IMG/VR virus record: IMGVR_UViG_3300036985_003389
Coordinates: 1-60,218 of that record
DNA: 60,218 nucleotides
Source of the DNA: a virus
Taxonomy: Duplodnaviria > Caudoviricetes
Direction: 5' to 3' (one strand)
Numbering within the stretch: the stretch's first letter is position 1; every line of letters begins with the position of its first letter. The notes under the pieces were generated by a model that had not been told where the DNA came from, searched no databases, and saw nothing but the letters and a program-made list of their open reading frames with translations. Positions 18,042 to 48,872 of this stretch are shown here, piece after piece. The translations under genes and the position numbers were made by a program.

Positions 18042-21000
18042 CTACTTCACGCGGATGCGGCGGCTTCCCGAGACGCGCTCAGAGCCAGCGTCGCGCCAGC
18101 CCTCAAGCATCTCGTCGCGCAGCACCGGCCAGCCCTCGACCGTCTCTTTCCAGTCTGGGATGCGCACCTTCTGGAAGATTGTCGTACCGGAGGAGCCGCG
18201 GCTGACGCGCAGATCGAACTGGTTGGCCAGTTCCATCGATATGCTGGCCAGCAAGTCGATGGCCGGCTGAGGATCACGCAGCTTGCGAGTCGCGAACTGC
18301 TTATGCCTCAGCGCGATCAAGGCGTTTTCTGTTTCGATCGCGGCAAGCGTGTTCAGCACGTCGCGCGCCGAGTCGGCCTGCTTGGGCGTGAGCTTGATCG
18401 GCACCGGTTCCGTCCGGCTGCTGCTGTCGACCAGTCGCTCGGTCAGGATGTCGCCTTGCAGGCCCTTGACCACGCGCAGCATGTCACGGGCCCGGTTCAG
18501 CGGGTGCGCGTTCTTCTTTCGGTTGCTGGTTTGCTGCTCGATGACCGCATAGGCGCGAGCCTCGTCGCTCTCCAGCGTGGCCAGATAGGCGTTGGCCTGT
18601 GCCCGCCCGTTCTGATCGACGAGGCCGAGCTTCAGGTAGTGCTCGTAACCCTTGGCGGCTCGGATATAACCGTCGCCCTGCTTTCCCATCACCTCATAGT
18701 AGGCGCCGTGCGCGTCAGAGGCCCGGTCAGGATCGATCTGGAAGCGCTGCACCATCGTGCCGATCAGCGGGTACTCGATGATATTGCCGGTGCGCGGACC
18801 GTTCGGGCGCGAAACATTCGATGTCTTTTGGATGTCCTTGCCCCAATAGCCGAGCCCAGATTGCAAGGCGTAGTCGATAATAGCCGGCGTCAACTCGAAC
18901 TTGTTCTGGAAGATAGCCGATCCGACCTTTTCGACAGGCTTCTTGGCCGTGCTTTCGTTGACCATGCGCGACAATGATATCGCGAAATGCGATGCATAGG
19001 CACCGAACTGTTCCTGCGGCGGCAATGCCTGCATGTGCTCCGAGATGATCGACCGCTTGGACAGGCTGTTGTAGTTGGCACCGATGTCGCGCCACATGCG
19101 CACGGCTTGGGGAACGAGTGGCGGAGACAGCGAATCCCACAGCCCTTCGTTCACCCGCTCCCAGAAATTCGGATCGCCCTTCGTTTGCGCATCGATGGCG
19201 GCCTCGATGAAGATCGACGGGATGGCCAGCTCGAACGCCTTGGGGATCTGATACCACTCGCCGTTGATCTTGACCGGCTGGGCCTTGTTCTTGATGCGGG
19301 CGTTGATGCGCCGGTACTCGTCGTCATCGCGATAGAGCGCCATGAAGCTCAGCAGCACGCCCGTATAGAGCACGAGATTGGTCCAGGCCATGGCCGACGT
19401 GGCCAGCGCTTTCTCGGAATCGGCCGACAGAGGTAGGCCGTTCTGCTGCTTGTAGAACGGGGCCAACAGTTCGCGAACCGAATCGACCCGAGCAGCGGCG
19501 TGCGCCAGAATTGCCGCCGTGACCGTGCCAGCGATGGATCCGGCGATGGGCCCGCCGACGAGCGTACCGAGCGCACCGGCCACAACGATGGCGCCACCCA
19601 TCTTCGCGCTCGACAGTTCCTTGCCGCGATCGGACAAGGCGAGGAACGTCCGTTGGGCCTTGTCGAGGCCCTGGATCTGAGCATTGAGAAACGGCACCAG
19701 CTTAGCTGCAACCAGCATGCGTGATCCGTGTCGGCCGAAGTCGATCAAGTCGCGGGCAACGAATGCTGCCTCTTGTGCGGCTTGGTAGGGCGTGAGCGAG
19801 GGATTGTAGGCAAGCGCCGCCTTGTATGCCTGAGTGAACACACCAAGGCGCGTGGCCGTTTCCGACATATCCGAGAGGTAAGCCAGATTCGCGAACCACT
19901 TTGATGGACTGCCGCTCTGATGCGTGGCCGCGCCGACCATCGCGCCAGACATGGCACCAGCCGGGCCCATCATCATGCCGCCGGCAATGCCACCAGCCGC
20001 CATACTCAGCCCCATGCTCAGCGGCTTGATTTGAAGCCCCTTGGCCTTCAGTGCCATCACGTCGACCTTGTCGCGCGCAGCGGACAGCGCAGCCACGTTC
20101 TGGCCACCCATCAGGCCGGCTACCTCCTGGTAGAGGCGTGCCATGTCGGTCTGGGCCACCTCGTGGTAGAGGCCGCGAGCCTGCGTGATGATCGGCCACG
20201 TGCTCGGGTGCATGATGCTGCCCGTCAAGGTCCAGGCAGACACCATATCGCGAAGAATGTTGGTCGCGATGAATGCCGGATGGGTCGTGACGCCCATGCG
20301 CAGTAGTGTCGCTGGCTTCGCAATCATGTCGATCATCAGCGACGACATTTCACGGCCAATGCCGTTCAACGTCTCGACCACGCCGGCTGCAAATTCCGGA
20401 TCGTTGATCCGGATCATCTTGCGATCGCCATTCTCCCAGTACGGGATCAGCAATGGACGTTTGGCGCCAAAGCTGCCGGGTGCCCACTTGAGCAGTAGCT
20501 GCGTATCGGTAAAGTCGTGTTCGATGCGCTTGATCATCTCATCGGCATCGTGCGCGTCATAGCCGAGCGACACGAGATGCTCGCGAAGCCTATCGAACTC
20601 GGCCGCCGACGCCTCGACGATCTCGGACTGATCGACCACCTCGGCAATGGCCGATCCGCCAGGCCCGACACGCTCGGCCAGGGCCTTGAGTGACAGGATC
20701 ACCTCGTTGTAGTGCGTCGCCGCGGCACGGTGGAACGTCTGGTCCATGATCGTCTCGATCGGATGGATGACGTTGCGATCCGAGCCGAGGAACCGCTTGT
20801 CCTTCGAGAAGCGCTTGATGCCAGCCCCGCCCGGCCCGGCCGCGTCAGCATCCACGTCGGAAATGTCGCGGGCGAATGGCACATACCAATCCTTGCGCGT
20901 GCGGCGGTAGTCGACCTCCGCTTGCGTCAGGCGGCCGGCCTGCTGGTCGTGGAGCACCTGCTGCCACTGGAAGTCATAGACCATCTGAGCCGCGTCTTTG

Positions 21001-24000
21001 AATGTCGGGTTCTCGCTCTCCAGCCGCTCGATGCGCTGCTCGTGGATGTCCTGGCTGATGGCGTGGGGGTTGCGCTGCATGCCGTTCTTCTTCGTGTCGG
21101 CAAGCTCGGCGCTCAGTTCCCTGGCATAGGTGTCGATCCCCTTCAGGCGGTTGGCTGCATCCTCGGCCTGGGCCTGTAGCTGTTCGAGCATATTGCCCTG
21201 TGCCGACTCGCCGATCTCCCGCTCGTCTCGATCCGCAGTCACGCTTTCCATGCGGCGGACGGCATCGGCCTGCTTGCGCTCCCACATCGCAATCTGGCGC
21301 TGCTTGCGGCTGATCAGAGATTGCCGCTCATCCGAGTTCATGGCCGTTGCCATCTCGGCGCCGGCCAGCTCGTCCTTGAGTTGGTCCAGGCGCTGGCCGA
21401 TGTCGGCAAGCTCTTTCTCGGCTGCGGATGCCGAGCGCTGCCGGTCCTGGACCAGCGTCGCATCGCCGATCTGGCGCGAGATCAGGCGCTCGACCCGATC
21501 GGAAAGCTTTCGCGACAGGTCGGCAAGCGCCGGCCGAACCGCGTCGATGTTAGAAAGCTTTCCGGCAATATCGGCGATCTTGTACTGCTTGGCCGTCCAG
21601 ACCTTCCATTCCTCGGCCGCGCGCCGGCTTTCCAGATAGACACCGAACGACTGGTGCTTGCCAAGCGACCACGTCTTGCCCATGGCCAAGCTCAACGCAT
21701 CATGCAGCGATGGCGAGCGAAACGACGTGTCGCGATAGTTGGGCATGCCGTCCTGAATCCAGCGCAGCCCGGTCTTGAAGCTGTCGCCGATCGAACGCAT
21801 GAGCTTGTACGGGTTTTCGTGCACGGCAAGTGAGATGGCCCGGCCCTTGTCGTCAGCCTTCAGATTCTCGTCGGCGCGCGCCAGGAATTTACTGACGGCC
21901 AGATACCACTGGTGGTTCTGATCGACGCCAGCCTCATAGACCGCATGCGAGAATCCACTGATGGTCCGTGATTGCCCGATGCTCTCGTAGAAGTCGCTGA
22001 ACCGCTTCGTAAAGCTGTTGTCAGCCTCGCTCTTGAGGTTGGCATGTGCCCGTTCCAGATCGGTGGCGCGAATGTAGTCCTGCCATTCCTGACGCGATTG
22101 CAGCAGGTGCAACCGCTCGATGGCCTCCAGGATTTCAGGTCCGTGACCGTCCAGGAAGTCCTCGAACTCGGCCAGAAAGTTCGGTGCCATTTGCTGCACG
22201 TGATCTGGGCGCAGGATGTAGTCGCGGAAGAAATTAGCGAAGCCTTCCGATAGCTGGTTGCCCTGCTGTGTCGACAGCGCCTCGAGTTCGGCCCGGTGCC
22301 GCATTTTGATGTGCGCCAGATCGGTGCCGAACAGACGCTCGATGTGGTGGCCGCCCTCATGCGCCACGTTGTCGATGTCGGTGGACAGGCGATAGCGCTG
22401 AGTGCCCGTCAGACGGTCGTACTGGCCGGCAACGAACTGGGTTGGCCGGAACGTCCTCGACTTCTTGCCGGTTTGTACACCCTCGACAGTCAAGCCATAG
22501 AGGCCCTGTGTCGCATTCATGCCGAGCACGTCCTTCAGATTGGCGATGATCTCGGTGATGGGCTTGACCTTACGGTCGCGACCCTTGCCGAACATGAACT
22601 GCGGCGCGGCACCTCCACCACTGCCACCGTTATCATCGGCAATGGCCTGCTCCAACCCGATGAACTGCCAATTGCCACGGCCATCCCTGGCCCAGCCGGT
22701 GGACAGGAATATCTCGATCTCGGGAGAGCCATTGCTGGCCATGTCACGAGCTACGGCAAACGTGTCAGGATCGGCCGTGGGCTCATTTGGCATGGCTGTC
22801 TGACTGTCGTCGAACGCTCTGATGGAGAACAGAGGCATTCCGCCGAGCAGCTTCGTGACCGTGTTGGCGTAGTCGACGACGCTTGCCATGCTAGAGCCCA
22901 GGCTGACGCCGAGGCCATCTTGATCGGCCCGCGCCACCAGTTCGCTCGCGCGACGCGCAGCACCGCGAACGACGCCGAACAGCACATCCATGCGTGACTG
23001 AGCCAGCGCCTCCGGTGGAATACCGCGACGCAACTCGATCAGGTACTGTAGCCTGTCCGGCTCGTTCGCTGCTTCCATCGCAGCAATCATCCTGTCCAGT
23101 TGTGCCGGACCAATCCAGGCACCATCGAACATCGGCCCGCCATTGACGTGATGGGCAACACTCTCGCCATTGCGCTTCTGCCAGTAGCGATAGGCATCCT
23201 CGCTCAGCCAGCCATTGGACGAGACGACCGTGCTCAGATCACGCTCGACCGCATCAAACAGGGCCGAGCTGACACCGCGACCGAGCATCTCGTCTTTCAC
23301 ACGGATGCTGGCCACTTCATGCCGACCCATCGCGTCTCGACTGAGCACGAGCGAAGCCACACCATCGCCAATGCTGTAGGTGCGCAGTTCCGTGCCATCC
23401 TCGTTCGTGCGGATGCTCACACTGCCGGACATGCCTGCTGCCGAGAATGGCTGCTGCGTGGCTGGGCGTTGAACGGACGAGCCGAATGAAAATGAAGGTG
23501 TGCCACCCCACTGCTCCAGCACTGCCTGTCCAGCCGGCACATACAGGGCCAGAACCTGCGCTCGCTGCTCGAGTTGTTCCGGCGTGGTCAGGGACTTGAT
23601 TCGATCACGCAGCACGCCATCGGTCATGCGTGCGCGAATACCGGACACCTCGGCCCGCTCGAACAGGTCGGCAAGATCATTGAAGCCGTACTTGTTCAGC
23701 ACCGTCTTGATGGCCTGCATGATCTCGACCATGCGAGACAGCAAGGCATCGATCGCCGCGCCATAGCGGGTGCCGGACGACCAGTCCTGCGCCATCCGAG
23801 CAACGCGCTCCTGGTTCAGGCGCTCGACCACGAAGTCACGCACATCGCGCATGTCATTCATGCCCATGCGCCGAGCCTGCAGATAATAGGTCGTAGCATA
23901 TTCTGGCAATGCGGGATGGGATGTACCATCGGGGCGCAATGTTCGGATCTTCTCGTCGATCCCGATCTTGGCCGCCCGGTCAAGCAAGGACTTCCATTCA

Positions 24001-27000
24001 GCCGCTGTGAACGCGCCTGCCTCACGCAAGGCATGCACCGTCTCGTGCCATGCGCCACCGCGCGCCGTGTCTGGTCCGTACGCCAGCGTAACAGCCAGCA
24101 AGCGGCTGCCGTGCTCGTAGAAGCCGACCGGCTCGCCCTGGTCCTGCTGAGCCAGATGATCCGCCACACGGATTGCCACGTCGCGCGGGGCCATGCGCGC
24201 TATCTCAGCCTCGATGTCAGCGACGATCGCGGCCTTGCGCTCAGCGTAGCCAGGCCGGAATGAGCCGAGATTGCCGATCTGCGATTCCGCGGCTAGGCGA
24301 AAGAGGGGCTGGCCTTCCTCCATGACCGAACGCTTGACCGCCTCGGTCAGCGGGAATAGCGTGAAGCCCTTGCCAAGGCCAGTCTTGCCGCTTGGGCTGT
24401 CAAGAGTCTCGATCCTCTCGGGGGAAGGAGATGCCTTGTCGATCTTGGCGATCAAATTGCGAAGGTTCTTCGGGACAATGCCTTCGATCGCCGAGTTTTG
24501 AGCAACAAGCCGCTTAGCCGCCTTGAGGCCGGCTGCGTGCTCTTCCGCGGAAACACCGGAGGCGGCACCCTTCTCCAGTCTTTCAAGTTCACTCTTGTAA
24601 ACTTTCAGTTGTTTCGGCCTCTCGGCTCCGCCATAGAAGAACCGCATGCCAGCGTCGTCACCCGGATTATAGGACAGCACCGTATCGCCACTCGGGATGG
24701 CAATGTAGTCAGCCCCTGCCTCACTGGCCTGACGAATGGCACGGCGAAGGACAGTGTTAACCCACTGGTCAGTGGTGTTGACAAGGGGATTGCCGGGGGA
24801 ACCCGCTTCGGCAGTGGCAAGTTCAGCGCGAAGAAGACCTTGCTCAGAAATGGCGACATTCAAGTCAGTTGGCAGGCCGGTCGGATCGAGTTTTTTGATA
24901 CGGGCCAGGAAGCTCCGCACGTGGCCGGGAGGAATATCCTCGTATCGCGTTGCGCCAACGCTGTTTGTGAGGTTAGTCCAATCCATGCGCGACCTGTGGT
25001 CGGCGGGCAAGTCGGCAAGGTACTCGTCAATGTACGGCTTCGCCTGCGCCCGAAGATCGCCGACGCGATCATCTGCTGCTTTGGCCTTCGCCTTTAACTC
25101 AGCGATCTTCGCCTCGTCCCTGACGCCGCCATCGCGCAGATTCTGGCCCCAATCAGACTGAATCTGGTCAATCGTGAACACTGGCTTTCCACGATGCGTC
25201 GTCATAGACGTCATCATGTGGCCGATGATGTTGGGCTCGGGGAAATGACCAGATTGGAAGTTGCTGGCCTTGATCTCCTTCAATTCAGAAAGAAGTGCGG
25301 CATTCTCGCTTCTCGCTGCACGCAACGGTGCAAAGTCGGGGGTTGCCCGCAGATCCTTCGCCTGCTCGCTTATGTCATAAATGACGCGCTGATTTTCTTT
25401 CATACGCGCTTCAATTTCCTGCGCGCGTCGAGATTCCGGCAGATGCAGGACTGTCTCTCTGTATGTGGGGTTGGAAGAGTCGAGAGAGTGACGGGCCCAC
25501 TTGGTCGGGCCTGCTGCGCCAGACGGAACGGTGCTCGTTTCCGTGTAGGCTCCGCCACCGACAAGATCATTCATCATGTCGTCGTCGACTAAACCTCCGC
25601 CCAAGTCTTGCGTGTCGGTGGTTCCGTCGATCTGACCGCCATACTGCACTTCCTTCACCTGGACTCTATTCTCTTCCAGGAATTTGACGATTTCGGATTT
25701 AGTGACTTGTTTCAACGACGCCCGGCGGGGAGGAGACGCAGTGCGATCACCCTGGGGCTTCCATTCCCCAACAAAGGTGTCGCTCATGCGATCTTGCCCA
25801 GGGACAAGGGGGCGCATTTCGAGCGTCTCGATCACACCCTCTTTTGCGGGGGCCAGCAACTCACCAAGTTTTGTGGCTTCGATCTCTGCGTCCTTGACGC
25901 CAGCAGATTTGAGCTGTGCCAGCATTTGCTCTGGCGTGCCCTTGGCTTGCTTGAGCCCACGCGCTGCTTCCAGCGCCTTGCTGTAGTAGCCGAGTGCATC
26001 AAGATCGCGACGCATGGACTGGCCTGTGCCAGCATCCGGCGAGGATGGGCCACCGAACATGAACTGAGGTGTGCTGGTGTCGTCAGTGACTGGCGCCTGA
26101 GATGCGCCGGCAGTCAGCTGGCTAAGATCGGCCTCGGCTTTGGCGATCTCGGCCTGGGCTACTTCTTCTTGGGAGCCTTGTGCGGCTCCGCTTCGTTCAC
26201 CGCCGCGAGCAACCACTGGTCGTCGATCCACTCCATCCACTCGGGGGTTCCCCGAGGTGGCTCCGGCCCGAGGCCATAGTCCCTCGATTTCCAGTCCAGG
26301 AAGCCCGGCGACTTCCCACCGGTCGGCTCGCTCGTTGAAGGTGACTTTGGCGGTTTCATTGACCCTCCGATCCTCCTCTAGTATAGCAAGAAGCTTCGGA
26401 ATGTTCGAGTCTGTTAGGTCGAATTCCGTCGTCGGAACTGCACGGCCGGTCTTCCTCCAGCGCATGACTGCGCGTTCCATCGCCAGCGCCTTTGGCACAG
26501 ACACATGAACCACCGTGATCTGATAGCCATTGGCCGAGAACTGATCGACCAATTTATTGATACTGCTGCTGGAAGATCCAAGCTTTTCAACGATTATATT
26601 GCCGCCAGCGCTCACCATGCGCGCGACAGCATCCTTCATCATATTCGAGGCTTCTTCGTGCACGCCTCCGGAATTTTTGCCGTCGTCATATTCCGGGATA
26701 AGCAGCTTGGCATCGTCGCCGACCATGTGGGCCGCGCCGTGCCGTTCACCAACCTTCTTGGCAATGGTCGATTTGCCTGACCCTGGCATTCCCAGAAGAA
26801 TGAACAGCTTGCGCTCGTTCTTCTGCGCGCCTCCGGGAATCTTCTCGATCGCATCGTCAATCAGGAATTGAACGGCGTTGTCGTATCCAACGATTTCGCC
26901 CTGCGGCGTGTTGTAGGTACGCGCCGCCTTCCATTCTGGCGAGCCATAGCCTGGCTGTTTTTCCGTGTCCCGGCTCATGTCGGCAATGGTGGCCCGCGTC

Positions 27001-30000
27001 CATTCCTCGCTGTTCAGCGTCTGACGAATCGCGGCTTCGCGCTCGACATAGTCGGCCTCGGTGAACTTTTCCGGCGCCATCAATGTCCGATAGTAGGCAA
27101 GGAATTTCTGCCACTCCTGGCCGAGATAGGCTTGACCGCCGGCACTCGGATCGACAGGAGCCTTCTGCGAGAATGCGAAGTATTCCTTGTTGGCCCGATA
27201 GCGCGGCAACGACAGGCCGGCGCGCATCAGCGGAATCGCAGCCAAAGCCTTCGATGTCTTGCCGACACCATCCGCCCAGACATGATCGGTCATGTTGGTG
27301 CGCCACTCGATCCAGGCTGCGGTCTCCACCGGATCGGCATTCTCATCGTCGAGGCGCGCGGCAAGCTCCTCAGAGAATTGCTTGTAGGCAGCAGGCAAGT
27401 CTGCCACGCGCGTGTATGGGAACTTGTCGCTGTCGTCCTCGCGATAGAGAGCACCTTCCTTCAGAATGCCGCGATTGATCGCCAGTGCGATCTTGTCCAA
27501 TTCCTTGGCAAGTTCCGACGGCTTCAGAAGGGCCATCTGCTCGCGGCGCCGGTAGATGTCGGAGATCACACCCTGGAAATTCTCGACTGCGGAACGGGCG
27601 GCGAGATCCCCAGTCAGGCCTTCGGCCATCTGCCCGGCTTTGCCAACTGAGGCGCTGATGTCGACGATGCCGGCCGCCGTCCTGGACGTGGCCTTGAGAT
27701 TGGCCATGCCCTGTTCGACGTAAGCAGCCTCTGCCTTCGCATCATCGGGTGACTGCGTCTTGCCGAACTTGAGCACGCCCTCTAAGCGCTGCAGGCGCCT
27801 TGTTTTGCGGCGCAGTTCATCTGCACGCGGGAACGGTGTTGGCTGTGCTGCCTTGTCCAGGCCCGGCAGTTCCGTTTCCCAGCGCGCTATCCTGCCGCGT
27901 TGCATCTCGATGTGCTCGGGGATGGCGGCCACCATGCGCTCCCAGCGACGCACAAGCTGCACCGGATCGCTGGTCTCCGTGATCAGGAACGAGTCCATGG
28001 GGCTGTAGTCACGAACACCGACGATCTCGGGCTTGACCAGGATGCCATCGCTGGTGCGCTTGACGATCGCCTTCATCTGGAAGCCGGAGATGGTGCCGAT
28101 CTCGCTATCAGATCCGTAACCACCCCAGATTCTCGACCCAACGCCATGCAGATAGCCGCGGATCGCCTCGCCCGCCTTCTTGCGCTCCTTGAACCCGACG
28201 GGCCCGTCCGTGCCAACATCCAGTGTCACGCTGAACTTGTCGCCGGCCAGGTCCGTGACCTTCAGCGCATCTTCTTCATATGGGGCAAGATCAGCCTTGC
28301 TCTTTTCATTCATCGACCGGATCGTCGCGGCATTGGCTGCGGCGGCCTTGTGGCTCCGAACGTGGCCGCGTTCGGCCACCTGGAGCTGGCGCACCTCGCG
28401 CGACAACTCGGCATGCTCCATAATCAGCGGATTGCCGGTTGCTGCAGCTTTGAGCTCAGCCGCTTCTGGCAACGGCGGGTTGATATCCTCAGCATTTCGC
28501 ACGCCGAGCGCACCAGCGAACATTTGGCCAATAAAGATGGATTTGCGGTCAAGCAGCTGCCACCGGTAGGCATCGAACGAGCGCTTGGTGATGTAGCGCA
28601 GAATGCGAACTTCCGGGTTCTTGTTGCCCTGCCTGAGAATTCGGCCGTCGCGCTGCTCAACATCGGCTGGCTTCCACGGGGCATCGAGGTGGTGCATGGC
28701 GATCAACTGGCGCTGGACGTTGGTGCCAACGCCCATCTTGCCGGTCGATCCGAACAGCACACGCACCTCGCCGTTGCGCACCCTCTCGAACAGCTTGGCC
28801 TTCTTGTCATCGGTGTTCGCGTCGTGAATGAACGCGATCTGATCGGCGGGAATGCCCTTCTCGATCAGTCGGACCTTCATGTCCTCATAGAGATTGAACT
28901 TGCCGACCAGCATGGCCTTTGCTTCAACCTCGGCCTCGTCAACCTCGGCTTCAACCTCGGCATCCTCACTCGTCCCGCGCGCCTCATCGAGCAACTCGCG
29001 ACGGATTACATCGGCGATGTCAGTATCGACTGTGGCGCCAGATGTTCCAGTCGCTGGCGTGACCGTCGAACGCCTACCCCTTGAGCCAGGAACGCCCATG
29101 TCTAAAAAGACCAGCTGCGCCTTGTTGGGCGCGGCCGGATCGACGTTGCCGTCCTTCCAGATGTCGAAGATATTGCTGACCGCTCGACCGATCTTGCCAG
29201 TCGGATTGAACGGCGCGGTTGGATCTACCAAGCGCATGTCGGTTGCGAGCTGAATGCCCTTGGTGAACAGGGAAATGAACGGCGCACCCTCGCCCGGCTT
29301 CTTTCCCTTGGCCTCCTCCATCTCCTCGATCAGGCCTTGGATGGCCGATTCTTCGGTTTCGGATAGATCAACCTCGACAGCTTCGATTTTGCCCCCCTTC
29401 AGATTTGGGCGTGGCAGCTTCAGCATGTCAGCGGTCTGGGTATCCATGACCTCGCCGACGAGGCTCATCAGTTCTGGCATGTTGACGAACTGAGAGAACG
29501 ATTCCGTATCGACCCAATCGCGGGAATTCGATGACAGCTCGGATTTGGTGACGATCTTGCCGAACGTGCCGGCCCACGAATCGAATTGATGCAGGCCATA
29601 CTTGCGCAGCATTGGCCCCTGCAGATAGCGCTGCATCGTGTAAAGCTCGGCCATCGTGTTGGATACTAGCGTACCCGTCATGAACACAGCTGACCGGCCC
29701 GGCCGACTCTTTTCCAGATGCCCCATCTTCACATAGAGATCAGTGGCACGCTTAGACTCGCCCTTGTTCGAAATGCCCCTCACGCGACCATGACGAGTGG
29801 CGAAGTGCAGTGATTTGAACGTGTGGGCCTCGTCGACGAACATGAAATCGACACCCAGCTCCTCAAACGTTACGCCGTCGTCCTTCGACTCCTCGTCAGT
29901 CAATCTTTTCAGCCTGTTCTCAAGGCGTTTCTTGGCTTTTTCCAGATCCTTGACGGTCGGCGAATCTTCGCCCTCGTCTTTGGCTGCCTGATCTTTGGCG

Positions 30001-33000
30001 TCGAGCAAGTCCTGAATCTGCAGCTCGTAGTATTCGCGATACGTATCAGGCGACATGCCGACACGCGTGAACGCCGAGTGCGTGATGATGATGCCGTCCC
30101 ACGTGTCGGAAGCGACCTTGGCCGCAAACTCCCGGCGCCGATCACGGGACATCTGATCCTTGGTTGCAACCAGCAGCTTGGCATTCGGATAGGCTTGGTA
30201 GAACTCCGTCGAGAACTGCTCCAGCATGTGGTTCGGAACGACGAACATCGGGCGCTGCACCATGCCCAGACGCTTCATCTCCATGGATGCCATGATCGCC
30301 GTCCAGGTCTTGCCGGACCCGACAACGTGATTGAACAGCGTGTTGCCGCGCTGGATTACGCGCCAGATTGCATTGACGCGATGTGGCAGGAGATTGATCG
30401 TGCCTGTCGTGCCGTCGGGGAACGTGACGACACGGGCAAGCCCTGGAAATGTCAGATGCGAACCATCGTACTTCTGCGGCACGATGCGATTGAAGGTGTG
30501 ATTGTAAAGCTTTTCGAGTCGATCGGCCCGCTGCATGTCTTCCCATGCCCAGCCGTCAACGCCAAGATCCGAGTTGCCTGAAAACAAGTCTCGAATGGCA
30601 TCGATCTTAGCACGCGCCTCGGCTTCTGCCTCGGGGACGCGCACGCGGGTTTCGCCTTCCTCGCTCTGGACTGTATCTGTAATCACGACCGTATTGGAAT
30701 TGAGCGCATAATCCAGTATCTGGACAAGATTTTTTCGCGCTGTTCCGTAAGTATCGTTTGCCGCCAACGGGAAGTGACCAGACAGAACATTCCAGCGCGC
30801 ATTGGCCTCGTTGTAGACGAGCTCGACGCGGTGGCCTCCCAGCTTTTCCTCAAGGAATTTTTCATAGACCTCAGCTGGCACCCATGGGGCGCCAAACGGA
30901 ATCGTGATCTCAGACCTCGTGAGCTGTTCCGGCTGCACCTTTTCGAGAGATTCGACGTTGCGTCGATACCGCATAGGATCAAGCTCGGCTGCGATGCGCG
31001 CTTGGTCCAGTTTTTCGACGACATCGCCAGCCAGATACTCGGCATTGGTCTGCCAGATCTCGCCAGCCGGGTTCTCAAACACCTGATCGTCGAGGGACGC
31101 AATGGCCTCAGCTTGGTTGAGCCCGAGGCGCTTAGCGATCAACGGCATATCAACCTTGCCGGTCTCGTTCAGAGAAACGGCCAGGGCATCCGACGGCCCC
31201 GTGATGGCCGGTGTCTGGTAGGAGCCGACGATATCCTGATTGAAGATTGCCGCCTTCTTCGCGGTATCGGACTTCTCGTCGTAGACCTCGACCGCAGCCA
31301 CTTTGAAAGCGTCTGGATCTTCCTGGAACAGCGACAATGTCGGCTTGCGCCGGATGACAACCTCTTTGCCATCCTTGCGCGTCTGCTTGGTCACGATCGT
31401 GCGATTGATCGGCCCGTACCTCTCGACAAAATCATCATAGGCCTTGCCGAGCGCCTCCCGGTAGTCGTCCATACCAGCGCGATCGCCGCGCGCCTGCTTG
31501 GCCAGCATGTCATTGACGATGCTACGCAGGCCTATGAACCCGCGAACCTTGGCAGCAGCTTCCTTGCCGAAATTCTGTGGCTCGCCAACACCCTGCACCT
31601 TCCGATAGAGCGTGCCGTCCTTTTCGTAGAACGAGCCTTCCTTGATGCCGTCCGTCTCGGTATCAACATCCTGGCGCGGCTGATCGACGGCGGCAACGCC
31701 ACGCGGGATCATGGAGCCGGCCGGAATGTTGTCGGCGATGGCGTTGACGACCTTCATGCCGAGGCCGTCCGTAGAGCCGATCAGCACCGGCTCGCCCTTG
31801 CCGTACATCTTGCCAATCAGGCGCATCTTGCCGAGCATCATGTCGGGATGGGCCGCGAAGTAACCGTTGATGTCGGTCGCACCTTCCGGCGTCTTCACTT
31901 CAGACAGCGTGCGCCATTCCGGATTGCGATCTGGCTCGCCCTCCATCTTCTTGCGGAAGAAGATGATATCGGTGGTCACGTCCGTTCCGGCATTGGCCTT
32001 GAACGCGCCCTGGTTGCCGCCCGGCAAACGCACGGCGCCGAGGAACGTACCGCGCCTGTCCATCTCGCGCCGCGCCATCGTGCCGGCCTTGTCGAGCGTG
32101 CCGCTCGACGTGATGAAGGCAACGATGCCACCAGGCCGAACCTTGTCGAGCCCCTTGATGAAAAAATAATCGTGTAGCGTGAACTTGTTCTTGTAAGTCG
32201 GATCGTATGGACCTTCAGCGGCGAACGGCACATTCGAGATGGCCAGATCAAAATGATTGTCCGGCCACTTTTGCGTCTCGAAACCAGCAACGCGCACGTC
32301 GGCTGCCCCGTAGAGCGCCTTCGTGATCTCACCGGACAGGATATCGAGTTCGACCGCAGTCCACGCCGTATCGGCCCGCAGCTTGCCCGGCATGAGCCCA
32401 ATGAAGTGACCGATGCCAGCGGCCGGTTCGATCACGCGACCGCCCTTGAAACCCATGTGCTCCAAAGCGTCCCACATGGCCGTAATGACCTCAGGGGACG
32501 TGTAATGTGCGTTCGTGGTCGATGCTCGTGCTGCCGCATATTCGGCCGGCGTCAGCAAGTCTTTCAGCGCGTTGCGCTCGGCCTTCCATTCCGGCTTGTG
32601 ATCGGCGAACACGTCCTGGCTGAAAGCACCCCAACCCACATATTTGACGAGCTTGGCCTTTTCCTCGACCGTAGCCGGGCGCTTTTCTTCCTGCAGAACG
32701 CGAAGGATGCGAATCGCATCGATATTGCCGCGGACCTTGGCCTTGGGCCCGCCCTTGCCGATCTGGTCGGCCGGCGTGATCTGATAGTTTAGCGTCTCCC
32801 GGTCAGCACGAGCCAGCTCCTGCCGCTCGATCTCGGCGGCAACCTGATCGGCAACGGCTGCCTGTTGCTCGTCACTCAGGCTCGCGGAAGCGGGAGGTGG
32901 ATTAGCTCCGAGTTCACGATCTCCCGCACCTGTTCCGGTATTGCCTCCGTCACCTTCACCCTCTCCAGGTAGTCCGTCGGCAGGTCCGGATTGTCCATCA

Positions 33001-35678
33001 TCTGTGCGAACAGGTCGTCCCACATCTCCGTCGCTTCCTCCCCGATCTGCGAGAGGTGTTCCGCCAGCCGGCCCGATTTCTCCATTTCCTGATACTGCAT
33101 CGGATACGCCTTCTTCAGGAACTCTCTGCGCATCACCTCGAAGTGTTGTGCTGACGGCATTGGCGGCCCTCTCCGATCGCGTATCGAATAATGCTTTCAG
33201 CCTAACAAAAGCATCGCCCTTTGTCTTGGCCTTGAATCTCGTGCCCGTGTAGGCCGTGACGATCTCGTCCAGCACCTTCTTGGTGACAGCACGATCCTTG
33301 CGGATATCGGTCATGACAGCCGTGAACGCCGACTGATCGGTGCCGGCCGTTTCGAGCATGCCAGCGTAGTCCTTGGCAATCTCGGTCAGCTTGGTCCCGG
33401 TCTGGCGCTCGATGCTCTCGGCGCGCTTGAGCGCACGGAATGACGGATCGATCGTGATGGAAAACCCGCCATCGAACGTCTGCTTCGTGACTGGACCCGG
33501 CTCAGTGGCCGGCAGCTGCACAGTCTGTGCCGTCTTGGCCTTGGGCGTGCGCCTGATGGCCCCCTTCGCATCAACCCGGATCAGCCCTTGCTTGGCTGCC
33601 GCGTCGAGCATGGGCTTCATCTGAGCATCGGACACACCGAGCTGCTTGGCCCATGACTTGGCTGGCGTCTTGCCTGCGATGAGGCTGGCAAGCTGGGATT
33701 GTGGATTGGGTGGCGCGGCTGGGCCAGCAGGCTGGCCGCTGGTGGCCCCCCGGTCAGTCTTTAGATTGTTGGTCTCGTGATCGTATCGATCCAGAGATTG
33801 CCGGTAATAGGCCATCTCGGCCTTGCGCTCTGGCGTAGTCCCGTAGTCCCGCTCGTTCCCGAACGCAGACGTCTGGGCACGGCTTGCCCCGTTCTCACGC
33901 ACGGCCTTGTCGGCAATCGCATCGATCGCAGCCCGCCGTTCTACTGACAGGCCATCGCTGGAGGCCAGCGCGGGCTCCGGAGCGGCACTGCCGGCAAACA
34001 GGTCGGTCTGTCCCGCTTCAATCTCAGCCTGACGTGTCCGGCCGCGCTGCAATCCGTCCATGGTCTCGGACAGGTCGTCACGCTCGGCGACCAGATGCCG
34101 CCGCCTGGACGCGGCGGGGCCCTTGATGGCCGGACCGAGTGCTGCAATCTCCTGCTCGATCTCGGCCACCCGAGCCGTGCCACCGCGAATCGCCCGGTCA
34201 TACTCGACCGTGCTGTCCATCTCGACACTGGCCGTTGCCGTCGCGCCGTCCCATGCCTGGACTTCCTTGGCCCGCTCCAGTGCCTCGGCATCGGTGGCTT
34301 GTGCCACCTCCTGCTTGACCTGCTGCGCCATCAGCCCGTGCTTCTGGGCCGTCTCGGGATCGGCCGTGCGCACGAAATTGGCGACATCATCGAGATAGGG
34401 ATCGGGCGTGGCTGCCTTGGCCGGCGGTGCTTGCTCGTCCTTGCGCAATTGCGGTGATGAGCCGGGGCGCGCCTTGCCATCAGGTTCAGTCAGATAGGTT
34501 GCCGAGTCCGGGCCTTCCGTCGGCGTGGCTGGTCCGTCCGGCTTCTTTTCCGGTCGATTGCGCACCAGTGCACGGCTGCCGCCCTCTAATGGGCCGCCTG
34601 CGATGGCGCCCTGGATGAAGCTTTCCAGCATCTGGCTTTCGATCCCCTTCAGGAGATCGTCATGTGCCACGCCATAGGCATCGGCCAGCGAGCGCGTCTT
34701 GGCGTAGACCGGCGCCGTCAATTCAAGCGCGGTCTGGAGAAATTCGGTCGTTCCTTCCTTGACGCCACCGGCAGCGAAGCCCTTGACGAGGCTCTTGATC
34801 AGGTGATCCGAGACCTCCTTCTTGGCCTCGTGACTAAACGCCGTCATGATCTGCTTGAAACCCGGAATGTATTCCAGGGCACCGTGGGCAATACCGGCCG
34901 CATACAAAACGTCCTCGTGATCTTCCGGCTTCACGCCGTTGTCATCGAATGCCTTCCTGATCGCGCCAATACCCATTGTCGGCAGCAACACCGGCAGTAC
35001 CGCGCCACCGCTCGCAATGCCGGCCGCCACGATTGGCACGATCGAACCCATACCCTTGAAGAACGTGCTGTGCGCATATTCGCCAAGATCTGAAACGAAA
35101 TTCTCCTTACGGATATCGGCAGCGCTCTGCGGCGCTGATGGCTTCCAAAAAGGATTCTTGAGAAGCTCCTCGTTCTGATCAGCCATAGACTTGCCGTAGC
35201 CGGCAACGCCTTGGGAGATCGACTCGCCGAGCGAACCATCGTCAGTTCGCCTAGCTACGCTCTCGCCCATAGTTTGCATGCCGCGACCGAACTCACTTGC
35301 AACACCACGCGTCCCCTGAATGAAGCTCTTGCCTGTTTGGGTCGTAGCCGGGCCAATGACCGCATGCCCTGCAACCGTGCCGGCCACCGACGCCAAATCT
35401 CTAGACAGGTCATTCGCGAACGTATCGTTCTCCCAGCTTTGACGAGCCCAGTCGACCACTGCCGAGCCGATCGAATCGAAGAAACCACGCTCATGGCTCG
35501 ATCTCTGCTCAGCTTGACGCTGCTGCATCGTCTCGCTGATAATCTCGTCCGTGCCAGGAACCGCCGTCACTGGCGCCACCGGGGAACGAGGCATTTCAGT
35601 CATGCTGGGTGACGCACCGCCACTGTCCAGCGACCTCAATTCGTTGAGTAGATCGTCGTCGTTTCTATCGTCAGCCAT
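18042..35678 (-). CDS. Giant (5,878 aa) polyvalent internal virion protein: DarB-like N6-MTase + SNF2 helicase, Fic-like, zeta-toxin-like, two HExxH zincins, GNAT-like, LPD23/LPD38-like
   Basis: Uninterrupted ORF in the T7 gp16 position. Motifs: IEPAAGIGHF/SNVPF (~32220-32435), HVVGSGKT (~30310), VDEAH (~29830), QRDGRILRQGN (~28640), HVWADGVGKTSK (~27270), GMPGSGKST (~26780), HETVH (~24040), LGRGVSSALF (~23270), TGWARDGRGNWQF (~22690), HEGGH (~22350), YQIPKAFE (~19245). Confidence 0.9.
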   Translation of the reverse strand: MADDRNDDDLLNELRSLDSGGASPSMTEMPRSPVAPVTAVPGTDEIISETMQQRQAEQRSSHERGFFDSIGSAVVDWARQSWENDTFANDLSRDLASVAGTVAGHAVIGPATTQTGKSFIQGTRGVASEFGRGMQTMGESVARRTDDGSLGESISQGVAGYGKSMADQNEELLKNPFWKPSAPQSAADIRKENFVSDLGEYAHSTFFKGMGSIVPIVAAGIASGGAVLPVLLPTMGIGAIRKAFDDNGVKPEDHEDVLYAAGIAHGALEYIPGFKQIMTAFSHEAKKEVSDHLIKSLVKGFAAGGVKEGTTEFLQTALELTAPVYAKTRSLADAYGVAHDDLLKGIESQMLESFIQGAIAGGPLEGGSRALVRNRPEKKPDGPATPTEGPDSATYLTEPDGKARPGSSPQLRKDEQAPPAKAATPDPYLDDVANFVRTADPETAQKHGLMAQQVKQEVAQATDAEALERAKEVQAWDGATATASVEMDSTVEYDRAIRGGTARVAEIEQEIAALGPAIKGPAASRRRHLVAERDDLSETMDGLQRGRTRQAEIEAGQTDLFAGSAAPEPALASSDGLSVERRAAIDAIADKAVRENGASRAQTSAFGNERDYGTTPERKAEMAYYRQSLDRYDHETNNLKTDRGATSGQPAGPAAPPNPQSQLASLIAGKTPAKSWAKQLGVSDAQMKPMLDAAAKQGLIRVDAKGAIRRTPKAKTAQTVQLPATEPGPVTKQTFDGGFSITIDPSFRALKRAESIERQTGTKLTEIAKDYAGMLETAGTDQSAFTAVMTDIRKDRAVTKKVLDEIVTAYTGTRFKAKTKGDAFVRLKALFDTRSERAANAVSTTLRGDAQRVPEEGVSDAVSGNGEIGPAGGTPLADRGGSDGDVGRPVRTDDGQSGPADGLPGEGEGDGGNTGTGAGDRELGANPPPASASLSDEQQAAVADQVAAEIERQELARADRETLNYQITPADQIGKGGPKAKVRGNIDAIRILRVLQEEKRPATVEEKAKLVKYVGWGAFSQDVFADHKPEWKAERNALKDLLTPAEYAAARASTTNAHYTSPEVITAMWDALEHMGFKGGRVIEPAAGIGHFIGLMPGKLRADTAWTAVELDILSGEITKALYGAADVRVAGFETQKWPDNHFDLAISNVPFAAEGPYDPTYKNKFTLHDYFFIKGLDKVRPGGIVAFITSSGTLDKAGTMARREMDRRGTFLGAVRLPGGNQGAFKANAGTDVTTDIIFFRKKMEGEPDRNPEWRTLSEVKTPEGATDINGYFAAHPDMMLGKMRLIGKMYGKGEPVLIGSTDGLGMKVVNAIADNIPAGSMIPRGVAAVDQPRQDVDTETDGIKEGSFYEKDGTLYRKVQGVGEPQNFGKEAAAKVRGFIGLRSIVNDMLAKQARGDRAGMDDYREALGKAYDDFVERYGPINRTIVTKQTRKDGKEVVIRRKPTLSLFQEDPDAFKVAAVEVYDEKSDTAKKAAIFNQDIVGSYQTPAITGPSDALAVSLNETGKVDMPLIAKRLGLNQAEAIASLDDQVFENPAGEIWQTNAEYLAGDVVEKLDQARIAAELDPMRYRRNVESLEKVQPEQLTRSEITIPFGAPWVPAEVYEKFLEEKLGGHRVELVYNEANARWNVLSGHFPLAANDTYGTARKNLVQILDYALNSNTVVITDTVQSEEGETRVRVPEAEAEARAKIDAIRDLFSGNSDLGVDGWAWEDMQRADRLEKLYNHTFNRIVPQKYDGSHLTFPGLARVVTFPDGTTGTINLLPHRVNAIWRVIQRGNTLFNHVVGSGKTWTAIMASMEMKRLGMVQRPMFVVPNHMLEQFSTEFYQAYPNAKLLVATKDQMSRDRRREFAAKVASDTWDGIIITHSAFTRVGMSPDTYREYYELQIQDLLDAKDQAAKDEGEDSPTVKDLEKAKKRLENRLKRLTDEESKDDGVTFEELGVDFMFVDEAHTFKSLHFATRHGRVRGISNKGESKRATDLYVKMGHLEKSRPGRSAVFMTGTLVSNTMAELYTMQRYLQGPMLRKYGLHQFDSWAGTFGKIVTKSELSSNSRDWVDTESFSQFVNMPELMSLVGEVMDTQTADMLKLPRPNLKGGKIEAVEVDLSETEESAIQGLIEEMEEAKGKKPGEGAPFISLFTKGIQLATDMRLVDPTAPFNPTGKIGRAVSNIFDIWKDGNVDPAAPNKAQLVFLDMGVPGSRGRRSTVTPATGTSGATVDTDIADVIRRELLDEARGTSEDAEVEAEVDEAEVEAKAMLVGKFNLYEDMKVRLIEKGIPADQIAFIHDANTDDKKAKLFERVRNGEVRVLFGSTGKMGVGTNVQRQLIAMHHLDAPWKPADVEQRDGRILRQGNKNPEVRILRYITKRSFDAYRWQLLDRKSIFIGQMFAGALGVRNAEDINPPLPEAAELKAAATGNPLIMEHAELSREVRQLQVAERGHVRSHKAAAANAATIRSMNEKSKADLAPYEEDALKVTDLAGDKFSVTLDVGTDGPVGFKERKKAGEAIRGYLHGVGSRIWGGYGSDSEIGTISGFQMKAIVKRTSDGILVKPEIVGVRDYSPMDSFLITETSDPVQLVRRWERMVAAIPEHIEMQRGRIARWETELPGLDKAAQPTPFPRADELRRKTRRLQRLEGVLKFGKTQSPDDAKAEAAYVEQGMANLKATSRTAAGIVDISASVGKAGQMAEGLTGDLAARSAVENFQGVISDIYRRREQMALLKPSELAKELDKIALAINRGILKEGALYREDDSDKFPYTRVADLPAAYKQFSEELAARLDDENADPVETAAWIEWRTNMTDHVWADGVGKTSKALAAIPLMRAGLSLPRYRANKEYFAFSQKAPVDPSAGGQAYLGQEWQKFLAYYRTLMAPEKFTEADYVEREAAIRQTLNSEEWTRATIADMSRDTEKQPGYGSPEWKAARTYNTPQGEIVGYDNAVQFLIDDAIEKIPGGAQKNERKLFILLGMPGSGKSTIAKKVGERHGAAHMVGDDAKLLIPEYDDGKNSGGVHEEASNMMKDAVARMVSAGGNIIVEKLGSSSSSINKLVDQFSANGYQITVVHVSVPKALAMERAVMRWRKTGRAVPTTEFDLTDSNIPKLLAILEEDRRVNETAKVTFNERADRWEVAGLPGLEIEGLWPRAGATSGNPRVDGVDRRPVVARGGERSGAAQGSQEEVAQAEIAKAEADLSQLTAGASQAPVTDDTSTPQFMFGGPSSPDAGTGQSMRRDLDALGYYSKALEAARGLKQAKGTPEQMLAQLKSAGVKDAEIEATKLGELLAPAKEGVIETLEMRPLVPGQDRMSDTFVGEWKPQGDRTASPPRRASLKQVTKSEIVKFLEENRVQVKEVQYGGQIDGTTDTQDLGGGLVDDDMMNDLVGGGAYTETSTVPSGAAGPTKWARHSLDSSNPTYRETVLHLPESRRAQEIEARMKENQRVIYDISEQAKDLRATPDFAPLRAARSENAALLSELKEIKASNFQSGHFPEPNIIGHMMTSMTTHRGKPVFTIDQIQSDWGQNLRDGGVRDEAKIAELKAKAKAADDRVGDLRAQAKPYIDEYLADLPADHRSRMDWTNLTNSVGATRYEDIPPGHVRSFLARIKKLDPTGLPTDLNVAISEQGLLRAELATAEAGSPGNPLVNTTDQWVNTVLRRAIRQASEAGADYIAIPSGDTVLSYNPGDDAGMRFFYGGAERPKQLKVYKSELERLEKGAASGVSAEEHAAGLKAAKRLVAQNSAIEGIVPKNLRNLIAKIDKASPSPERIETLDSPSGKTGLGKGFTLFPLTEAVKRSVMEEGQPLFRLAAESQIGNLGSFRPGYAERKAAIVADIEAEIARMAPRDVAIRVADHLAQQDQGEPVGFYEHGSRLLAVTLAYGPDTARGGAWHETVHALREAGAFTAAEWKSLLDRAAKIGIDEKIRTLRPDGTSHPALPEYATTYYLQARRMGMNDMRDVRDFVVERLNQERVARMAQDWSSGTRYGAAIDALLSRMVEIMQAIKTVLNKYGFNDLADLFERAEVSGIRARMTDGVLRDRIKSLTTPEQLEQRAQVLALYVPAGQAVLEQWGGTPSFSFGSSVQRPATQQPFSAAGMSGSVSIRTNEDGTELRTYSIGDGVASLVLSRDAMGRHEVASIRVKDEMLGRGVSSALFDAVERDLSTVVSSNGWLSEDAYRYWQKRNGESVAHHVNGGPMFDGAWIGPAQLDRMIAAMEAANEPDRLQYLIELRRGIPPEALAQSRMDVLFGVVRGAARRASELVARADQDGLGVSLGSSMASVVDYANTVTKLLGGMPLFSIRAFDDSQTAMPNEPTADPDTFAVARDMASNGSPEIEIFLSTGWARDGRGNWQFIGLEQAIADDNGGSGGGAAPQFMFGKGRDRKVKPITEIIANLKDVLGMNATQGLYGLTVEGVQTGKKSRTFRPTQFVAGQYDRLTGTQRYRLSTDIDNVAHEGGHHIERLFGTDLAHIKMRHRAELEALSTQQGNQLSEGFANFFRDYILRPDHVQQMAPNFLAEFEDFLDGHGPEILEAIERLHLLQSRQEWQDYIRATDLERAHANLKSEADNSFTKRFSDFYESIGQSRTISGFSHAVYEAGVDQNHQWYLAVSKFLARADENLKADDKGRAISLAVHENPYKLMRSIGDSFKTGLRWIQDGMPNYRDTSFRSPSLHDALSLAMGKTWSLGKHQSFGVYLESRRAAEEWKVWTAKQYKIADIAGKLSNIDAVRPALADLSRKLSDRVERLISRQIGDATLVQDRQRSASAAEKELADIGQRLDQLKDELAGAEMATAMNSDERQSLISRKQRQIAMWERKQADAVRRMESVTADRDEREIGESAQGNMLEQLQAQAEDAANRLKGIDTYARELSAELADTKKNGMQRNPHAISQDIHEQRIERLESENPTFKDAAQMVYDFQWQQVLHDQQAGRLTQAEVDYRRTRKDWYVPFARDISDVDADAAGPGGAGIKRFSKDKRFLGSDRNVIHPIETIMDQTFHRAAATHYNEVILSLKALAERVGPGGSAIAEVVDQSEIVEASAAEFDRLREHLVSLGYDAHDADEMIKRIEHDFTDTQLLLKWAPGSFGAKRPLLIPYWENGDRKMIRINDPEFAAGVVETLNGIGREMSSLMIDMIAKPATLLRMGVTTHPAFIATNILRDMVSAWTLTGSIMHPSTWPIITQARGLYHEVAQTDMARLYQEVAGLMGGQNVAALSAARDKVDVMALKAKGLQIKPLSMGLSMAAGGIAGGMMMGPAGAMSGAMVGAATHQSGSPSKWFANLAYLSDMSETATRLGVFTQAYKAALAYNPSLTPYQAAQEAAFVARDLIDFGRHGSRMLVAAKLVPFLNAQIQGLDKAQRTFLALSDRGKELSSAKMGGAIVVAGALGTLVGGPIAGSIAGTVTAAILAHAAARVDSVRELLAPFYKQQNGLPLSADSEKALATSAMAWTNLVLYTGVLLSFMALYRDDDEYRRINARIKNKAQPVKINGEWYQIPKAFELAIPSIFIEAAIDAQTKGDPNFWERVNEGLWDSLSPPLVPQAVRMWRDIGANYNSLSKRSIISEHMQALPPQEQFGAYASHFAISLSRMVNESTAKKPVEKVGSAIFQNKFELTPAIIDYALQSGLGYWGKDIQKTSNVSRPNGPRTGNIIEYPLIGTMVQRFQIDPDRASDAHGAYYEVMGKQGDGYIRAAKGYEHYLKLGLVDQNGRAQANAYLATLESDEARAYAVIEQQTSNRKKNAHPLNRARDMLRVVKGLQGDILTERLVDSSSRTEPVPIKLTPKQADSARDVLNTLAAIETENALIALRHKQFATRKLRDPQPAIDLLASISMELANQFDLRVSRGSSGTTIFQKVRIPDWKETVEGWPVLRDEMLEGWRDAGSERVSGSRRIRVK
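26159..26359 (-). CDS. Nested +1-frame 66-aa ORF overlapping the end of the zeta-toxin-like domain (candidate antitoxin)
   Basis: Preceded by GAGGAGGATCGGAGGGTCA-ATG. The host frame here is a low-complexity G/R-rich linker. The product has an amphipathic acidic/Trp helix (TPEWMEWIDDQWLLAAV). Confidence 0.5.
   Translation of the reverse strand: MKPPKSPSTSEPTGGKSPGFLDWKSRDYGLGPEPPRGTPEWMEWIDDQWLLAAVNEAEPHKAPKKK
32876..33160 (-). CDS. Nested +1-frame TnpV-like protein inside the giant gene
   Basis: MRREFLKKAYPMQYQEMEKSGRLAEHLSQIGEEATEMWDDLFAQM...ERVKVTEAIPEQVREIVNSELI follows the TnpV pattern. GGAGAGG RBS lies 7 nt before ATG. The host frame is a disordered G/D linker. Confidence 0.72.
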   Translation of the reverse strand: MPSAQHFEVMRREFLKKAYPMQYQEMEKSGRLAEHLSQIGEEATEMWDDLFAQMMDNPDLPTDYLERVKVTEAIPEQVREIVNSELIHLPLPRA

Positions 35679-35687
35679 GAGGTTCCG

Positions 35688-35978
35688 ATGCTGGATTACA
35701 TGATCAACACAACGGCACTAACGCTCGGTGCGACCGTCATTGCATTGCCGGTCATTTTATTGATTCGTGGACCGCTATGGGTGCGGATAGTAGTTGGTGC
35801 CGTGCTCGGCGCTGCCCCTTCGGCATTCATCGCGTGGACAGGAAGCCTCGATGCTGGCACCGACGATCATCTGTTGCGCATGGCACTTGGCGCGATGATC
35901 GGAGCGTCCACTGCCTGGCTCGTCTGGGGTGCGCAAAGGAACGCCAGAACCGAGCCACCAGCGCGCCCGTGGCGATAG
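35688..35978 (+). CDS. Small three-TM membrane protein, opposite to the late operon
   Basis: Three hydrophobic segments. It fills exactly the gap between two - strand virion genes. Confidence 0.65.
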   Translation: MLDYMINTTALTLGATVIALPVILLIRGPLWVRIVVGAVLGAAPSAFIAWTGSLDAGTDDHLLRMALGAMIGASTAWLVWGAQRNARTEPPARPWR

Positions 35979-35981
35979 CCC

Positions 35982-43016: not shown

Positions 43017-43075
43017 GTGGTGCTCCAGTTGGGGAGCGAGGGACACGATTGCCCCCCGCCGCTAAGCGTCCGTAC

Positions 43076-43372: not shown

Positions 43373-43399
43373 TGTTGTGTTCTCCTGTTGTGTTGGCGC

Positions 43400-44227: not shown

Positions 44228-44237
44228 TTTGGTTATT

Positions 44238-44410
44238 CCTGTGTGTTGTCAGATGGTTAATCGCTGATAACAACAGGCATCGCGTACCCATACATTCGGC
44301 AGCCGGTGTGCCCTTGCGGGGCCAGCTCGCGAATACTCGGGACAATGCTGCTGTGGGTCGGCAAGTGCTCGTAATGTGACGGGGCCGCCTGCAATGGCGG
44401 TGTGCCCGTC
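44238..44410 (-). promoter_or_regulatory. Structured leader upstream of the capsid gene
   Basis: Three stem-loops. Two share a GGGCACACC/GGCCCC internal-loop motif, and the third overlaps the capsid RBS. Confidence 0.5.
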
Positions 44411-44442
44411 GGGTCGTGATCGTGCAAAGTGCCTAATGAATG

Positions 44443-48869: not shown

Positions 48870-48872
48870 TGA

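Follow-up and report, generated by a model that had tools for sequence, protein, structure and literature searches.

Embedded out-of-frame genes are known from phage lambda, where Rz1 lies inside Rz, and from Bacillus subtilis, where comS lies inside srfAB; tnpV of the transposon Tn4451 is a free-standing gene. The TnpV family has been found in 16 of 24 MOBQ2 mobilisable elements, its function being unknown (PMC12084326). The DarB protein of phage P1 is, in the main text of Iyer et al. 2017 (PMC5512222), the archetype of a triad that joins LPD36 (four helices and a GxGU motif) to an adenine methylase and a SWI2/SNF2 helicase. It has the accessory proteins Ulx, DdrA, DdrB, Hdf and DarA, and it requires the small partner Ulx (PMC12810830); in JC1-type phages no homologues of these partners are known (PMC9144972). 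Here we describe a locus that bears on all of these: a tnpV-like open reading frame (ORF) nested out of frame in a giant gene of a tailed virus and sitting, by its sequence, in the spacer just before a putative LPD36-like, methylase and helicase (DarB-like) module. The window, that is, the whole stretch of DNA analysed, is the complete IMG/VR virus record IMGVR_UViG_3300036985_003389 (60,218 bases; CheckV completeness 93%). We consider the overlap to be a real and selected dual-coding segment, in which 285 bases would yield two products by means of a separate internal initiation, and we put the probability of this at roughly three in four.

The nested ORF occupies 32876..33160 on the minus strand, opening with ATG and running for 94 codons plus a stop in the +1 frame of the giant gene, which in the ORF list spans 18042..35678 (-) and 5,878 codons. 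A Shine-Dalgarno-like GGAGAGG is found at 33168..33174 (-), 7 nt 5' of the nested ATG. A first, sequence-only reading of this DNA had described the ORF, its frame and its own ribosome-binding site, all of which hold, and had likened the product to TnpV. The Pfam profile agrees: the product scores 56.6 bits against TnpV (PF14198; E 2.9e-15; gathering score 27), residues 7-87 aligning with profile positions 26-111 of 111. The partial cover of the profile, together with a +1-frame stop 14 codons before the nested ATG, therefore points to an N-terminally shorter TnpV subfamily. On sequence grounds we assign the nested ORF to the TnpV family as a member of a short subfamily starting MP(S/T)A.

Other resources give a similar picture. 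The clusters nearest to the nested product in the ESM Atlas are TnpV clusters (score 0.91), and in PHROGs it matches the unnamed family phrog_24764 (2e-8); no family was matched in NCBIfam or PADLOC. A profile search of 1.84 billion representatives returned 455 relatives, of which the best 150 are mostly 89-125 residues long and include no giant fusion, the longest of these 150 being 710 residues with seven short stretches. A tblastn search with the 94-residue protein matched one phage record and no plasmid. In a collection of 5.8 billion proteins there is none more than 77% identical to the nested product, though the window and its relative L005 (see below) both encode that product; four database proteins of 86-95 residues are 62-77% identical to it and share the start MP(S/T)A and the same end. 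This absence, and the lack of a nested coding sequence (CDS) in the records of five cultured phages considered below, bear out the earlier expectation that standard gene callers would miss the ORF. AlphaFold, supplied with six sequences, returns a confident four-helix model (pLDDT 87.1, pTM 0.70) of an acidic protein (pI 4.8). Foldseek found no match to this model in the PDB or BFVD at E up to 0.001, and the fold therefore gives no hint of TnpV function.

The comparison that carries the argument is between four lineages, namely the window with L005, a metagenome contig 98% identical to it; L007, which has 71% nucleotide identity to the window over 2.2 kb; L009 (with L006, 98% alike), which is 66% identical to the window in the methylase; and L011, a 68-kb virus contig. 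In all four the host frame is unbroken across the overlap and the +1 ORF is open over 91-95 codons, with the MP(S/T)A start and the position of the stop kept, while the identity of the TnpV proteins ranges from 41 to 68%. The sequence-only reading had named frequent stops in the +1 frame of close homologues as one observation that would speak against it, and none of the four lineages has one within the ORF. The homologous ORFs all exceed the Pfam gathering score as well (L011 56.9, L007 52.0 and L009 34.1 bits). GGAG occurs at -17..-5 of the nested ATG in all four, as compared to a background of 2.7-6.1% of host-gene positions, and in the 45 nt upstream of the ATG conservation is confined to this GGAG and GCCAATGCC, the remaining bases having diverged. 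A scan of the minus strand from 32500 to 36200 found no sigma-70-like promoter.

Both frames appear to be under constraint. When the TnpV protein was held fixed, its codons redrawn from host-gene usage and the host frame checked for stops, few recodings left the host frame open (1.8% for the window, 9.4% for L007, 3.0% for L009 and 3.5% for L011). The real host readings contain 22-26% glycine as against 13-17% in the open recodings of all four lineages, and in each lineage the real value is reached by at most 0.2% of recodings; for the window the figures are 24.5% and 16.5 +/- 2.4%. The hydrophobic content of the host reading does not differ from that of open recodings. The glycine enrichment of the host reading thus exceeds what TnpV coding imposes. 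Third codon positions point the same way: when the window is compared with L007, the methylase differs at 0.48 of host-frame third positions and the overlap at just 0.24 (Fisher p 1e-5), and in the TnpV frame 0.31 of third positions differ, again below that 0.48 (p 0.002). Damping of third positions in both frames is consistent with the pattern expected of dual coding. TnpV is more conserved than the linker that shares its bases in six of six lineage pairs (identity 0.41-0.68 versus 0.31-0.48), the methylase lying above both (0.61-0.71). Of the two readings we take that of TnpV to be the older and the linker to have been superimposed on it, since TnpV is a widespread family and the linker belongs to no family and evolves faster.

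The other product of the overlap is part of the giant protein. Across the nested ORF the host frame reads NAVSTTLRGDAQRVPEEG...GEGDGGNTGTGAGD, a linker at 32874..33185 (-) rich in Gly, Asp, Ala and Pro (giant residues ~832-935; G 24%, A 10%, D 10%, P 9%; pI 4.05) that is coextensive with the nested ORF. In an AlphaFold model of a 300-residue host piece, pLDDT stays below 50 at residues 72-171, which correspond to giant residues 832-931, and the best 10-residue blocks of the flanking helical segments reach 70-81. The host reading is therefore predicted to be disordered exactly across the overlap, and the low-complexity linker that had been proposed from the letters is borne out both in composition and in the model. 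The distance to the following module, which had been put at about 85 nt, needs qualification: from the nested stop (32876) it is 87 nt to the conserved 'LNYQIT' block, but the conserved alignment already begins at 'LSDEQ' (residue 933), overlapping the last codons of the nested ORF.

We envisage the following sequence of events. Ribosomes on the giant frame would read the overlap as a glycine-rich disordered spacer, joining a poorly conserved N-terminal region to the conserved LPD36-like, adenine-methylase and SNF2-helicase module. Other ribosomes would start on the same giant-gene mRNA at the internal Shine-Dalgarno sequence and ATG, one base out of step, and release a small acidic protein of four helices and 94 residues, a free member of the TnpV family. 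Internal initiation on the giant-gene mRNA is the simplest reading of these data, and we infer the separate translation from the frames, the start signal and their conservation. As to what the free protein might do, the sequence-only reading had suggested a chaperone, inhibitor or regulator of the methylase-helicase. Our own tentative guess by analogy is a small acidic partner whose target, in the producing cell, would be the giant protein encoded by the shared mRNA; it would serve either as an escort for packaging or as a brake on the methylase-helicase, and would not travel with the giant protein as a domain of it. A partner in the producer cell is favoured because TnpV has been kept as a free chain inside a gene that is built to fuse domains; the analogy is with small acidic chaperones and with the need of P1 for Ulx.

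The same layout is found outside the four lineages. A human-gut 'Bacteriophage sp.' scaffold (L010; 43% G+C), a Gram-positive-type element in which the locus adjoins a SpaA-type pilin gene, carries a full-length canonical TnpV (134 bits, profile positions 1-111) in the +1 frame of a 1,298-codon ORF that bears N6_Mtase. The overlap again falls on a low-complexity stretch, here rich in G, D, E and S, and AAAGGAG precedes the likely start. The sequence-only reading had placed tnpV next to the methylase-helicase, which is accurate for the window, where it lies directly before the DarB-like module, but not for this element, where N6_Mtase follows ~700 residues after TnpV. The host-frame peptides across the TnpV end are alike in the two, GGNTGTGAGD in the window (32900-32960 (-)) and GGNTGAGDG in the scaffold (L010:6150-6250). 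The simplest account of the shared peptide is that it arises incidentally, from conserved TnpV residues being read in the neighbouring frame, and the frame offset is therefore the same in the window phage and in the scaffold.

Of the phage records that match the LPD36-methylase piece of the window (see below), five from cultured phages were examined, namely Microcystis phage Mwe-JY07, Pseudomonas phage Itty13, Sinorhizobium phage PBC5, Vibrio phage VvAW1 (L015) and Ralstonia phage AhaGv (L016). A hidden Markov model (HMM) of the subfamily, made from 45 short-subfamily members, was run against the 362 ORFs of 50 codons or more in all six frames of these five loci and of L002 (IMGVR_UViG_3300034150_000083). 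Its top six matches (E 3e-6 to 0.018) are one per locus, each the frame directly before the methylase module and each offset by +1 from the frame of the methylase. The TnpV-like frame is a short nested ORF in L002 and in all the cultured phages but one, PBC5, where it lies within orf33; none of the five records gives it a separate CDS. L002 has a 100-codon +1 ORF at 2678-2980 (+), directly before the LPD36-like block of a giant gene 39% identical to that of the window. Its likeness to TnpV is weak (hhalign probability 20%, P 0.0011; subfamily HMM E 0.018; no Pfam match), and, like the frames of PBC5 and the other cultured phages, it may have become shorter and diverged. In Itty13 (L013, NC_070969.1) the RefSeq CDSs across the DarB-like region lie on the opposite strand to an open frame that exceeds 2,035 codons and has a match to the methylase module, and the giant gene seems to be mis-annotated. 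On the sequences compared, the layout appears common to related phages and to polyvalent genes of other mobile elements. The proposal that a gene pair had been captured into this particular polyprotein is not supported in that form, given that the +1 layout recurs in the four lineages, in diverged form in the cultured phages and in canonical form in the Gram-positive-type element; the layout was therefore inherited or moved as a unit.

A bolder proposal would be that DarB-like modules are almost always accompanied by a TnpV-like protein encoded out of frame in the linker, be it in Gram-positive conjugative elements or in proteobacterial, cyanobacterial and freshwater phages. The small protein would be translated from the same mRNA as the giant one and be needed either to load the latter into the capsid or transfer channel or to silence its enzymes in the producer, the overlap itself being adaptive. 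We hold this to be rather doubtful. If it were true, the TnpV-like protein would fill the place that Ulx has in P1, as the accessory factor so far missing, and the overlap would weld partner and client into a unit that recombination could not separate.

Several observations weigh against dual coding of the kind we favour, or against its generality. The nested product leaves profile positions 1-25 of TnpV unmatched. The four lineages share ancestry, and the four-of-four counts are not fully independent. The codon-position test of TnpV alone gave no clear wobble excess, with mismatches at positions 1/2/3 of 23/22/29 between the window and L007 and 44/31/36 between the window and L009; purifying selection on TnpV consequently rests on conservation of the family and integrity of the frame, the wobble excess being weak, and not on a clean dN/dS. 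L005 has a break in the giant frame upstream of the nested ORF, and PBC5 has its TnpV-like segment in the frame of the preceding orf33, the methylase ORF being separate. With the Pfam profile none of the five cultured phages exceeds the cut-off (two give weak matches), and their matches were seen solely with our own subfamily HMM against a small database. Finally, P1 Ulx (146 aa, its gene lying downstream of darB) was considered as a TnpV homologue and rejected: it matches no Pfam family at E up to 10 and not the subfamily HMM, which also found no TnpV-like frame in the P1 darB-ulx region (best E 4.6).

Two of these loci have further detail of their own. In L005 a segment at 1359-1602 (window ~33720-33970), ~0.55-0.8 kb upstream of the nested ORF, is 154 nt shorter than the segment of the window that it replaces; the giant ORF is split there, with its upstream part in another frame, which could be a natural split variant or an assembly artefact. 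In PBC5 (L014, AF448724.1; 1421-1997) the TnpV-like segment ends the 2,185-codon orf33 and the methylase frame opens at 1421, overlapping it. This arrangement is either a real split-and-fused variant or the result of a one-base error in an old sequence, and it bears on the possibility of frameshifting discussed below.

The weak wobble signal is what a relic would leave, that is, a tnpV gene swallowed as the giant gene extended through it, whose +1 ORF is no longer translated and persists because little time has passed or because the host frame happens to spare it. The length of the ORF is on its own not beyond chance in the giant gene, which has a G+C content of 60% and in which the +1 frame stays open for 94 codons or more in 11 places and the +2 frame in 14. 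What takes the nested ORF beyond chance is the Pfam TnpV match together with GGAG and two open frames in all four lineages. Across the giant gene the mean +1-frame open run is 36 codons, and yet this ORF has stayed whole, its start and stop in place, in lineages whose proteins are down to 41% identical and in every case still pass the TnpV threshold; GGAG has been retained as the bases around it diverged, and host-frame third positions are constrained. A relic is, on this evidence, unlikely. We note that, among ATG ORFs of 60 codons or more in the alternative frames of the giant gene, just one besides the nested ORF has GGAG at -17..-5. It lies at 26159-26359 (-), in the +1 frame and close to where the Zeta_toxin-like domain ends, comprises 66 codons and matched no Pfam family at E up to 1.

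Alternatively, the locus might comprise separate genes, an upstream protein, tnpV and a methylase-helicase with its own start, such that the host frame of the overlap would not be translated as part of one giant protein. Conservation of the host protein does set in sharply after the overlap, the region N-terminal of it being poorly conserved between lineages, and the frames split upstream of or at the TnpV segment in L005 and PBC5 indicate that split forms exist or are tolerated. However, the host frame has no stop in any of the four lineages when a mere 2-9% of recodings would leave it open, its glycine content is more than TnpV coding accounts for, and a ribosome that has translated the upstream 839 codons meets no stop. 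Giant single CDSs are annotated in cultured relatives, and JC1 gp69 was detected in virions by mass spectrometry (PMC9144972). We consider separate genes decidedly unlikely.

A further alternative to two independent starts is that ribosomes on the giant frame slip by +1 near the nested start and produce a fusion of the N-terminal region to TnpV, with GGAG acting as a stimulator. Internal Shine-Dalgarno-like elements stimulate frameshifting in other genes (e.g., prfB and dnaX), and the upstream ORF of PBC5 continues into the TnpV-like segment without a change of frame and stops where that segment stops, as would be expected of such a fusion. A fusion would not explain the conserved ATG and MP(S/T)A N-terminus, and it has to contend with a +1-frame stop just 14-16 codons upstream in the window and L011; no recognisable slippery motif is present in the GCCAATGCC context, as judged by eye without a formal scan, and the database homologues are free proteins of 86-100 residues that start at the nested Met. 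Frameshifting is, we believe, very improbable. The notion that two compensating sequencing or assembly errors displaced an in-frame TnpV domain, which the origin of the window as a metagenome-derived virus contig might invite, has negligible probability and is refuted as far as assemblies can show, since four independent assemblies agree (the same offset is seen in L005, L007, L009/L006 and L011, and in the GenBank loci L010, L012, L013, L015 and L016) and the contigs of four sequencing runs that cover the overlap contain no insertions or deletions. One 96%-alike contig (X6) has at least 11 substitutions in the nested ORF, 6 of them silent for TnpV and 4 for the host frame, and keeps both frames open, although as a single low-depth contig it is weak evidence.

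The giant gene in which the dual-coding segment lies encodes a polyvalent protein that is probably carried in the virion, as its Pfam domains and its virion-module neighbours indicate. The first conserved block after the linker is an LPD36-like helical module (32679..32873 (-)) with an IGKGG motif of GxGU type, conserved in four phages and assigned from the description of LPD36 in the main text of PMC5512222, not by a profile. It is followed by the core of a putative DarB-like N6-adenine methyltransferase (31944..32651 (-); NVPF at residues 1149-1152), for which Pfam N6_Mtase gave no match to the giant protein at E up to 0.01, and by an SF2/SNF2-type helicase part (28626..30386 (-)) with ResIII at residues 1765-1956 (27.7 bits; cut-off 22.5) and Helicase_C at residues 2279-2351 (23.4 bits, just below the cut-off of 23.5). 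The motifs run in the order IGKGG (residue 973), NVPF (1149), GSGKTW (1787) and DEAHTFK (1949). The second half of the protein contains Zeta_toxin, LPD38 and, below cut-off, LPD23. A tblastn search with the LPD36-methylase piece matched 92 phage records, many of them annotated as DarB-like antirestriction protein or DNA methylase.

Upstream of the giant gene PHROGs matches comprise terminase, portal/adaptor, tail tubular proteins and an internal virion protein, and downstream a tail fibre. The order at 35982-50752 (-) is that of a podovirus-like virion module, with one internal virion protein that has a lysozyme-like part; the tail-fibre gene after the giant gene has 1,768 codons, and the giant gene itself lies in the position of genes for ejected internal core proteins.

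Few long gene pairs in bacteria and phages are fully nested on one strand and have comparative support, and this one is open to a clean test, as a substitution silent in the host frame would suffice to abolish the nested start. The pair brings an unannotated protein to the giant injected anti-defence proteins, a class under study in connection with phage host range, for which small partners are known only from P1 (PMC9144972). It would also represent an unusual route of gene fusion, in which a large gene reads through a small conserved gene in another frame and uses it as a flexible spacer, and it exposes a systematic blind spot of gene callers for nested frames. No published description of the nested tnpV layout was found in the literature searched, supplements not being covered; the main text of PMC5512222 contains neither 'TnpV' nor 'overlapping' nor 'frameshift', and its supplementary domain tables might list the region under another name.

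Set beside the described systems, the nested product resembles TnpV of Tn4451/Tn4453-type transposons and MOBQ2 elements as a small helical mobile-element protein matched over profile positions 26-111. It differs from the Tn4451/Tn4453-type protein in being shorter (94 versus ~111-125 residues), in lacking the first 25 profile positions and in being coded inside the linker of another gene in a tailed phage. The giant protein probably shares the LPD36-like, adenine-methylase and SNF2 module and the site in the virion module with P1 DarB and with the Bcep22-like giant virion proteins (JC1 gp69, Bcep22 gp75), but it is 2.6 times longer than P1 DarB and has many further domains. In this it is akin to the polyvalent proteins described in the main text of Iyer et al. 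2017 (PMC5512222), with many domains per polypeptide, LPD domains and a putative methylase-helicase-LPD36 triad. As in Rz1/Rz and comS/srfAB, a whole small gene lies in the +1 frame of a larger one, on the same strand and with its own start signal; unlike in those pairs, the embedded gene here belongs to an old and widespread family, the enclosing low-complexity reading is the derived one, and the pair recurs across phages and conjugative-type elements. The embedded out-of-frame gene is thus a known kind of arrangement, to which the TnpV/linker pair adds a variant.

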